A stretch of DNA of 37,322 bases from a virus (taxonomy: Duplodnaviria > Heunggongvirae > Uroviricota > Caudoviricetes): positions 1 to 37,322 of the IMG/VR virus record IMGVR_UViG_2908567220_000001; one strand, written 5' to 3'. The number at the start of each line of letters is the position of its first letter. Positions within the stretch are counted from its first letter, which is position 1. A model generated the notes under the pieces. That model saw only the letters and a program-made list of their open reading frames with translations. It was not told where the DNA came from and did no database searches. Below, piece by piece: positions 24,075-25,256 of the stretch. The translations under genes were made by a program, and so were the position numbers.

Positions 24075-24479
24075 CTAATTTCCTTGATAAAACGCCAGCA
24101 CTCGCTGCATAGCTTCGCTTTTCCGGCACTCGCGACAGATTATGTTCAGACGCCTGTCGTAGCGGCGTATTTCTCCGTCTGGTAATGACCAGATAAGGTC
24201 CGGATCAACCACAGATAGTTTCTTCACCTTTGCCCTAGATAGTTTTTTGCGGGCATTTTGCCAATCCTTACGAGCCTGTTCAGACGGGAATAACCCGTAA
24301 CCAGAGTTGTATACATCGCCACTGGCAACCAGCTCTCTGGCGAGAACGCTCATCAGATATCTTGTCGCACCTGTCTTGACTTCCAGTTGCCGTAACGTCT
24401 CACGCCCACTCTGGCGTACGAGTTCAACAACCTGTCCTTTAATTTTTTCTCGCTCTTCTGGTGTAAATACTTTTGCCAT
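24075..24479 (-). CDS. hypothetical phage protein (134 aa)
   Basis: ATG at 24479 (MAKVFTPEEREK...) with GGAGG RBS; C-terminal Cys pair (CRECRK). Confidence 0.7.
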   Translation of the reverse strand: MAKVFTPEEREKIKGQVVELVRQSGRETLRQLEVKTGATRYLMSVLARELVASGDVYNSGYGLFPSEQARKDWQNARKKLSRAKVKKLSVVDPDLIWSLPDGEIRRYDRRLNIICRECRKSEAMQRVLAFYQGN

Positions 24480-24494
24480 AGGTGCCTCCGGCAA

Positions 24495-25256
24495 TCACTT
24501 TTCCGATGCAACATGGCGGGAAGAATCAGTAATCTGTCGTACAATATCCCTGTGCTTGTTCAACTCACGCAGCGCGGCGCAGACACGCTCCCACTTCTGG
24601 ACATGATTTTTCGCCCGACGCAGTTCGCGGTTTGCCATATGCAGTGATGGTAAAACCAGGTCATCCGCTCGCGTTTCAGTAAACGATGGCAGCGACTGCA
24701 CAATGTCCGCCACAGTTTCTGTTTTAATATCTTCCTGTGTTGCAGCCTCCTGTACTGGTAACGCAACACCTGCGGTCTGAGGAAAGGCCTTACCATCAGT
24801 TTCCGCTACCGATGCTGCTTTCGGCTCTGCTGGTAAATTATCGCCCGGTATGCAGTAACGAAATTTACCGCCCTGATTTACGCGAATCAGACGACCTTTG
24901 CTGATTGCCATTGCCAGCGTTGAAGCCACTTTGCGTGATGTGGTACCAAACAATGTAGCCAGCTCATCAGCCGTTTGTGGTCCTCGTTGTTCAATCGTCG
25001 CGGTTAAATCGCACTCTGAGATTTTCGCTACTGTTGCTGTGGTGATTTCTTCCGGCAGTTCTGCCTGCGCTGGCTGTTCCTGCTGAACGTTGTTATCAGC
25101 CACACGCCAGGTGTACGCGCTTTTATCAACAAAACCAGCCTTTTTCAGTTCCCATAGTTCGTTCAGCACTTCTTCACGACTGATATCAAGTCGCGCAGCA
25201 AGTTCTATGGATGTGGCTTTTCCCATTGCTTTCAGTGCGTCAAAAACAGTCTCCAT
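24495..25256 (-). CDS. hypothetical protein with two winged-helix-like segments and a basic helical C-terminus (253 aa)
   Basis: ATG at 25256 with GGGAGA RBS; repeated helix-turn-helix-like stretches ([59 protein letters not shown]). Confidence 0.7.

Follow-up and report, generated by a model that had tools for sequence, protein, structure and literature searches.

An intact ydaW gene and a DUF977 gene of the Ren family at the end of the early operon in a Rac-type Escherichia coli prophage

Two adjacent genes, here called gene A and gene B, lie on the minus strand of a 37,322-nt stretch of Caudoviricetes DNA (IMG/VR record IMGVR_UViG_2908567220_000001), which was analyzed at its full length and is referred to below as the window. 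A first-pass annotation of the sequence had described two open reading frames (ORFs) with good ribosome-binding sites (RBSs) behind a DnaC-like gene, and this is confirmed by the ORF list, where gene A runs from 25256 to 24495 and gene B from 24479 to 24075. Gene A encodes 253 amino acids from an ATG located 22 nt after the ydaV stop codon, with GGGAGA as the RBS read from the sequence (25265..25270), and ends with a TGA at 24497-24495. The 134-amino acid ORF of gene B follows after a 15-nt gap that contains its RBS, GGAGG (24485..24489). A longer reading of gene A, with 270 amino acids from an ATG at 25307 (the extension spans 25257-25307 and overlaps the 3' end of ydaV), is used by no homolog or annotation, and members of the family all begin with ME(T/S)V.... 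About 70 nt past gene B, a strong intrinsic terminator (23976..24007), with a 14-bp stem followed by a T run, closes the minus-strand operon and also lies just beyond the 3' end of the convergent gene of the neighboring island. A sigma-70-like site, TTGCCA-17-TATAAT (11/12 consensus matches; minus strand, 24044-24072), is found just past the gene B stop codon and about 35 nt before the terminator; it could yield a transcript of ~60 nt, and may be due to chance, given that the promoter scan returned 6 sites where 7.0 were expected from shuffled sequence. The scan placed no promoter-like site directly upstream of gene A or gene B, and a search of both strands of 23900-25400 against Rfam detected no RNA family.

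The operon is read in the order ydaS, ydaT (split by an insertion sequence, IS), ydaU, ydaV, gene A, gene B, terminator. The ydaU protein (26032-26889, minus strand) is 99.6% identical to its K-12 counterpart, and that of ydaV (25279-26025, minus strand), a DnaC-like helicase loader, is 100% identical. Since racR, ydaS, ydaT, ydaU, and ydaV are altogether 94.5-100% identical to their counterparts in the Rac prophage of K-12, the window represents an E. coli prophage of the Rac type, and the ORF pair almost certainly completes the early-right (replication) operon of this lambdoid prophage as its two final genes. Of 5426 complete E. coli genomes, 4617 match the locus in some form, either with both genes or with portions of them, and 932 of these cover at least 80% of the query.

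Both proteins belong to curated families. Gene A matches Pfam DUF1627 (PF07789) with 328 bits against a gathering score of 28.1 (E = 1e-98; profile positions 1-155 of 155) and PHROG 630 with E = 1.4e-131 (positions 1-252 of 253); its RefSeq label is "DUF1627 domain-containing protein", and RefSeq and phage records also use "YdaW family". Gene B matches Pfam DUF977 (PF06163) with 94.1 bits against a cutoff of 22.1 (E = 1e-26; profile positions 1-132 of 134) and, over its full length, PHROG 142, "Ren-like exclusion protein" (E = 1.2e-45), a family placed by PHROG in the category "moron, auxiliary metabolic gene and host takeover"; RefSeq lists it as "DUF977 family protein" and phage records as "LygF" or "Ren-like exclusion protein". 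Because of the Pfam E-values and because both genes are under purifying selection (dN/dS of 0.14-0.32 in comparison with diverged phage copies), gene A and gene B are real genes rather than chance ORFs. The first-pass statement that neither protein carried an assignable motif is superseded by these matches. Of the profile and structure searches proposed there, the former delivered named families, and the latter, described below, gave generic winged helices only. The proteins are still experimentally uncharacterized, as the first-pass annotation had them; they are members of known, very common, and well-populated prophage families, a classification that our analysis leaves unchanged.

The comparison with the ydaW region of Rac, likewise proposed earlier, identified gene A as an intact ydaW. 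Gene A and K-12 YdaW (b1361) are identical at 150 of 151 residues (residues 1-151) and diverge thereafter, and DNA collinearity with K-12 Rac extends from racR to window position 24807, with protein identity ending near 24804-24807. K-12 ydaW occupies the same place after ydaV as gene A does, but past residue 151 its sequence is unrelated, with neither the acidic linker nor the conserved basic hairpin of helices seen in gene A, and the DUF977 gene corresponding to gene B is missing from K-12 Rac altogether. Since identity and collinearity stop at residue 151 and at 24807, respectively, the ydaW of the window is the intact form and that of K-12 a deletion remnant, so that published screens with K-12 YdaW have used a truncated protein. 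An exhaustive search of 1.84 billion cluster representatives returned only 186 clusters related to gene A. We aligned 45 diverse full-length members of the family, down to ~22% identity, and PF07789 was matched by 43 of them. Gene A shows the family architecture, consisting of an N-terminal winged helix, a second winged helix, a variable linker, and a C-terminal IRRTK helix.

The first-pass annotation had perceived two winged-helix-like segments and a basic C terminus in the 253-amino acid protein, and the AlphaFold2 model agrees, with predicted local distance difference test (pLDDT) values of ~95-98 at residues 1-55 and 80-137 and a charge of +6 for the C-terminal helices. The first winged helix (residues 1-55; 25092..25256, minus strand; pLDDT 94-98 in the domain list) is the best conserved part of the DUF1627 family, with conserved L8, K13, A14, A20, L34, and W50, and it is acidic, with a family mean charge of -2.2 for the domain and -1.4 for the recognition helix. 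It is followed by a linker modeled at low confidence and predicted to be disordered (residues 57-78), and by a second winged helix (residues 80-137; 24846..25019, minus strand; pLDDT 92-97) that is basic, with a family mean charge of +3.8. This second domain is akin to the winged helix of the Ren family (95% probability and E = 3e-8 with hhalign for profiles A1 and A5), and PHROG 142 itself matches residues 84-132 of gene A (E = 3e-4). Beyond a second low-confidence linker, acidic and predicted to be disordered (residues 140-180; family mean charge -4.3), the protein ends in a basic helical hairpin (residues 205-252; 24501..24644, minus strand) formed by helices 205-234 and 236-252 (pLDDT ~95). 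The hairpin contains the conserved motif (E)IRRTK...L..LEK, in which R213 is nearly invariant, and the net charge of +6 is close to the family mean of +6.1. From the N to the C terminus, the model thus predicts two winged helices in gene A, the first acidic and the second basic with a linker in between, and a disordered acidic linker that connects the second one to the basic helical hairpin.

Searches of the PDB with the single sequences of proteins A and B gave nothing significant. The gene A profile matched structures only at the level of generic winged helices (AspA, ArsR, MarR, Z-alpha), and Foldseek searches of PDB and BFVD with the gene A model found only generic or tandem winged helices, the best being ScpB, ESCRT-II, and the C terminus of SelB. 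These proteins have two winged helices in tandem, as in gene A, but with TM-scores of only 0.2-0.3 and 11-18% identity, and without counterparts of the linker or the basic hairpin; the likeness is one of fold class and not a family relationship. Z-alpha domains conserve an Asn and a Tyr in the recognition helix and a Trp in the wing, as in ADAR1 Z-alpha. The gene A profile has marginal matches to the Z-alpha domains of ADAR1, ZBP1, and PKZ (E = 4e-4 to 0.03); by visual alignment alone, gene A has Ala at the Asn and Tyr positions and keeps only the wing aromatic residue, and we rejected a role as a Z-alpha nucleic acid binder.

In the AlphaFold2 model of gene B, a winged helix (residues 7-63; 24291..24461, minus strand; pLDDT >90) is followed by a basic helix with a charge of +6 (residues 67-86; 24222-24281, minus strand), a low-confidence linker, and a short C-terminal helix that coincides with the Ren-family signature NIICRECRKSEAMQRVLAFYQG (residues 112-133; 24081..24146, minus strand). 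Foldseek searches of PDB and BFVD with this model retrieved generic winged helices only, and lambda Ren was not recovered from the viral library. The C-terminal Cys pair that had been reported earlier for the 134-amino acid protein does exist, as C115 and C118 in a CxxC arrangement, but it is only the second Cys that is conserved: C118 is invariant, and C115 is replaced by Phe in lambda Ren and its close relatives. With no other Cys or His partners conserved, the pair was rejected as a metal site. Gene B is typical of the DUF977/LygF proteins of enterobacterial prophages and Stx phages, being 91-97% identical to hundreds of E. coli entries and 69-72% identical to the copies in Shigella phage 75/02 Stx and phage PhiR46_1. 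It stops exactly at ...YQGN, whereas most DUF977/LygF copies add 3-40 unrelated residues. Some proteins annotated as DUF977 do not contain the Ren motif, for example, one of 113 amino acids at locus L188. DUF977 genes that share 92-93% identity with the E. coli one were also encountered in contigs of metagenome-assembled genomes (MAGs) assigned to Collinsella sp. (L168 and L170) and Veillonella parvula (L171); these contigs are most likely E. coli prophage mis-binned into Gram-positive and Negativicutes MAGs.

The relationship of gene B to lambda Ren (96 amino acids) is clear at the profile level. Ren matches PHROG 142 over its full length (E = 1.6e-41), and a profile built from Ren proteins only aligns with residues 13-132 of gene B in hhalign (97.7% probability, E = 2e-12). 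Lambda Ren is below the Pfam DUF977 threshold. BLAST aligns gene B with Ren only over the last 20 residues, where 12 (60%) are identical (Ren residues 73-92), and TBLASTN with lambda Ren detects DUF977 genes in two loci. Among 49 family members, seven positions are invariant, all of them in the C-terminal motif (N112, I114, E117, C118, S121, M124, and R126), and every invariant position of the Ren-family motif N-x-I-x-x-E-C-R-x-S-x-x-M-x-R-V-L is present in gene B. With the mosaic junction located directly behind the motif, we considered whether the motif is a DNA-level recombination linker, and rejected this since synonymous differences are abundant: the codons for identical residues differ at 7 of 12 positions between gene B and lambda ren, and 8 of 22 differ in a further comparison. 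Because the codons of identical residues differ freely, the motif is held by protein-level selection.

A species-wide scan combined with a profile search uncovered intermediates between the two proteins: 97-amino acid Ren orthologs, 114-amino acid Enterobacter-type Ren-like proteins, some of which are already labeled DUF977 by NCBI, and tandem forms of ~190 amino acids (L182:4521-5099; P0450, P0413, P0416, and P0455) in which a DUF977-type winged helix is joined to a complete Ren. The winged helix of gene B aligns with the first domain of the tandem protein P0450 (E = 0.003), and lambda Ren aligns with its second domain and motif (E = 3e-14). The gene B winged helix was accordingly not found to be orthologous to that of Ren, the two being of the first- and second-domain subtype, respectively, and because different domains of P0450 are matched, gene B is a domain-shuffled member of the Ren family rather than a strict ortholog. 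Judged by these alignments, Ren, the 114-amino acid forms, the tandem forms, and DUF977 represent shuffled versions of one domain kit, and gene B is the Rac-type counterpart of lambda ren. Both proteins have a small winged helix and a C-terminal helix, each is encoded at the very end of its replication operon, with the nin or variable region coming next, and both genes have a mosaic junction at their 3' end. Gene B is 38 residues longer, due to the extra basic helix and linker, and is placed after a DUF1627 gene, whereas lambda ren directly follows the loader; unlike ren, gene B is separated from its upstream gene by a gap, with no overlap. The resemblance is thus to a conserved gene of the replication module, as opposed to a replication protein with a known housekeeping role, Ren being non-essential and lacking a mechanism.

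The genomic position of the pair is conserved. Downstream of close copies of gene A, a DUF977 gene corresponding to gene B is found in 75 of 77 cases, the remaining two being disrupted copies. Upstream of close gene A copies, 62 of 76 have a ydaV-like loader, and the rest have a DnaB-like helicase or a lambda P-like loader. Comparison of the gene B locus covered 80 DUF977 loci. Near-identical copies of gene B are preceded by gene A in 52 of 74 cases, by a 325-amino acid protein containing HTH_36 and also matching lambda O by TBLASTN in 12, and by a 366-amino acid protein without a Pfam match in 10. Gene B occurs without gene A in HannyBb, and gene A without gene B in PPompW. The lambda order O-P-ren-ninB was found in 79 of 80 loci, and Ren-type genes occur directly after DnaB-like, P-like, or DnaC/IstB-like genes in five genera. 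At the other side of the pair, a mosaic junction is located at 24075..24080, where the homology among prophages runs out in the final codons of gene B and gives way to the variable island. Past ...YQGN, homologs of gene B carry unrelated tails of 3-40 residues, the E. coli matches H9-H15 align only from query positions 78-80, and the 600 nt downstream of gene B fall into 12 unrelated clusters. Lambda-type Ren proteins likewise have variable tails after ...RVLAVYG (e.g., P0493, P0501, P0502, and P0504). The replication operon therefore closes with gene A and gene B as conserved genes, and it is directly behind them that the variable island sets in. The first-pass annotation had put the two genes in a variable post-replication slot for accessory functions; as the slot is not variable, with DUF977 following gene A so consistently and Ren-type genes closing replication modules in several genera, their placement is the opposite.

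More distant DUF1627 members occur in other contexts. Those with 39-52% identity are found in lambdoid early operons, either after an initiator gene and a gene for a 109-amino acid protein that is recognized by the Ren profile (E ~2e-9) and has retained the motif in degenerate form, or after a DnaB-like helicase gene. Those with 26-39% identity directly follow RecE-like exonuclease genes, with overlapping coding ends and no replication genes nearby. At five loci (L186, L187, L190, L192, and L193) the context is P2-like, with Phage_Cox nearby, and the DUF1627 gene follows a gene for a 722-744-amino acid Exonuc_VIII (RecE-like) protein, overlapping its 3' end by 11 nt, which suggests translational coupling. 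One distant locus reads RecE-RecT-DUF977-NinX-DUF1627. The adjacency of DUF1627 and Ren or DUF977 genes is therefore encountered in three arrangements: DUF1627 then DUF977, Ren-like then DUF1627, and the RecE-RecT-DUF977-NinX-DUF1627 order. We looked for a conserved gene downstream of the distant DUF1627 genes, and discarded the idea, as the neighbors are unrelated to one another and to Ren. A dedicated partnership of gene A with the DnaC-like loader was also rejected: because DUF1627 genes also follow DnaB-like, P-like and, in the case of distant members, RecE-like genes, the link to one particular loader is not general.

Published work on both families bears on function. Lambda ren is co-translated with O and P and is non-essential; on Rex+ lysogens its mutants show poor growth, for which suppressors have been found in O and P, and both RexA and RexB interact with Ren and with O in two-hybrid tests. 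In a retron-Sen2 study, a genome-wide overexpression screen lists K-12 ydaW as a blocker of the retron toxin RcaT, and RecE of Rac as a trigger. The same study describes RacC and RecE of Rac, in which a small prophage-encoded RcaT blocker is linked to a DNA-metabolism trigger, with ydaW as another Rac blocker; in-depth validation was carried out for RacC but not for ydaW. The distant DUF1627 genes that abut RecE-like genes parallel this blocker-trigger pair, although gene A follows a helicase loader and the RacC pair involves recE. Deletion of ydaW resulted in less early biofilm in K-12, and YdaW is found among predicted E. coli transcription factors of uncharacterized function.

The reading we favor, to which we would assign a probability of roughly 40%, is that both proteins are early, non-essential winged-helix adaptors by which the DNA-metabolism functions of the phage are shielded against abortive-infection or exclusion systems. 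They are taken to be accessory rather than core because the pair follows three types of helicase or loader, because either gene can be missing, and because lambda ren is non-essential; shielding is proposed on the strength of the published Rex and RcaT results, and the acidic first winged helix, the C-terminal helix of gene B with its invariant positions, and the association with replication and RecE-like genes are in line with it. Both proteins would act mainly via protein contacts, possibly with non-specific nucleic acid contacts through their basic elements, and what they would protect is phage DNA-metabolism machinery from the systems that sense it. The family-wide acidity of the first winged helix and the tandem-winged-helix fold matches to ScpB and ESCRT-II suggest a protein-binding domain. 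Gene B would be the Ren-like component, using its conserved C-terminal helix as a contact surface, by analogy with Ren, which makes replication of lambda possible in Rex+ hosts and has RexA and RexB as binding partners. As its companion, gene A would serve as an adaptor or blocker, and it is the two winged helices of gene A alone that scored against RcaT. The cassette would travel with the genes that act as triggers, i.e., replication initiator and loader genes and RecE-like exonuclease genes.

Several points weigh against this reading, and the role given to both proteins is a prediction. Only the C-terminal motif is specifically common to gene B and Ren, their winged helices corresponding to different domains of the tandem forms. 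The authors of the lambda work call ren "likely involved in DNA replication". The RcaT result comes from an overexpression screen with truncated K-12 YdaW, which corresponds to the two winged helices (gene A residues 1-151), and the text does not state whether ydaW was included among the 11 hits that were re-validated. PADLOC gave no meaningful match, with none for gene B and weak matches of gene A to helix-turn-helix (HTH) parts of CARF/Csa3 proteins (E of at least 2e-4). The fold searches with both models gave generic winged helices, and Ren was not among the results from the viral library. No rexAB-like genes are present within the window, where the exclusion gene beside racR is sieB. The basic second winged helix and the basic helices would also fit plain DNA binding equally well.

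A broader version of the proposal is unlikely, in our estimation: DUF1627/YdaW and the Ren family might constitute a portable two-protein anti-abortive-infection cassette, deployed behind initiator or loader genes against Rex-type systems and behind RecE-like genes against retron-type systems, with the Ren helix making an inhibitory contact and YdaW blocking the toxin. If true, it would provide a mechanism for lambda ren and would define a widespread counter-defense family present in most E. coli genomes.

Among the alternatives, a role as replication accessory factors at the replisome or origin survives best, and we see it as possible, if somewhat doubtful. The proteins would stabilize or release the initiator-loader-helicase complex, tether DNA, or take part in the switch from theta to rolling-circle replication, and effects on exclusion would be secondary. 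This would account for the genes invariably closing replication modules at their 3' end, where coding ends often overlap or nearly do so, and for the general presence of ren in initiator-helicase-loader modules as attributed to Weigel & Seitz (2006) by a citing paper. The suppressors of ren mutations in O and P, the binding of O by RexB, the quoted opinion of the lambda authors, and the potential of the basic second winged helix and basic helices to bind DNA point the same way. However, the same cassette is found behind three mechanistically different loaders or helicases, the distant DUF1627 genes follow RecE-like exonuclease genes with no replication genes nearby, either gene is absent from otherwise similar modules (HannyBb and PPompW), and lambda ren is dispensable.

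That the proteins are sequence-specific transcription factors, acting at operators of delayed-early or late phage genes or of host genes, is distinctly improbable. The listing of YdaW among predicted transcription factors and the profile matches to ArsR, MarR, and AspA structures would be in line with it, as would matches to MarR, ArsR, TrmB, and HTH_20, but all of these HTH matches are below the Pfam gathering scores. The first winged helix and its recognition helix are acidic throughout the family, conservation in gene B peaks in the C-terminal helix and not in the recognition helix, and the best fold matches of the whole gene A model are protein-binding tandem winged helices. No repeated operator-like sites turned up near the genes, in an analysis that included no search aimed at them. 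Finally, the first-pass interpretation as accessory or "moron" genes in a variable slot, expressed in the lysogen for a host benefit such as defense or exclusion, could draw on the adjoining defense-like island, the PHROG 142 category, and the biofilm effect of the ydaW deletion, but is very improbable given that the genes are conserved with the mosaic junction at the gene B stop codon, that they have no promoter-like site directly upstream and are tightly spaced with ydaV in a repressed early operon, and that no PADLOC defense family is matched.

The interest of the pair rests on the unsolved function of Ren-type proteins, as lambda ren has been without a mechanism since 1980. The comparisons provide concrete handles on this problem: a seven-residue invariant Ren signature under protein-level selection, a domain map of the Ren/DUF977 kit, and the three arrangements in which DUF1627 and Ren-type genes are repeatedly found side by side.

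The early operon of the window copy is broken by an IS3-family insertion of 1310 bp that splits ydaT (27162..28471). The insertion was delimited by the break in K-12 collinearity between 27161 and 28472, with a 3-bp overlap, and the element contains ORFs of 108 and 296 amino acids and an ALIL frameshift pseudoknot at 28020-28136. In the same operon it precedes ydaU, ydaV, gene A, and gene B, and from its position we infer that the early promoter probably drives gene A and gene B less well in this copy; the reading frames of both genes are intact.

Another insertion affects the neighboring region. The "defense-like island" of the first-pass annotation (20302-23975) is a single 824-amino acid gene split by an IS5 element (21153-22347) into ORFs of 292 and 483 amino acids. 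The encoded protein combines a KAP-family P-loop NTPase with a nuclease domain of the HSDR_N/PD-(D/E)xK-like type at the N terminus. The gene is uninterrupted at loci L084 and L085, and strain PCP06235 has a "P-loop NTPase fold protein" at the equivalent place, apparently the unsplit island gene. Elsewhere in the window, two adjacent tRNA genes are located on the minus strand at 17716-17866, in the late-regulatory region near a DUF1133/Q-like gene. A full-length Rfam match on the minus strand at 35587-35766 identifies the RalA antitoxin small RNA of the ralR/ralA type I toxin-antitoxin system, which is consistent with a Rac-type left arm.

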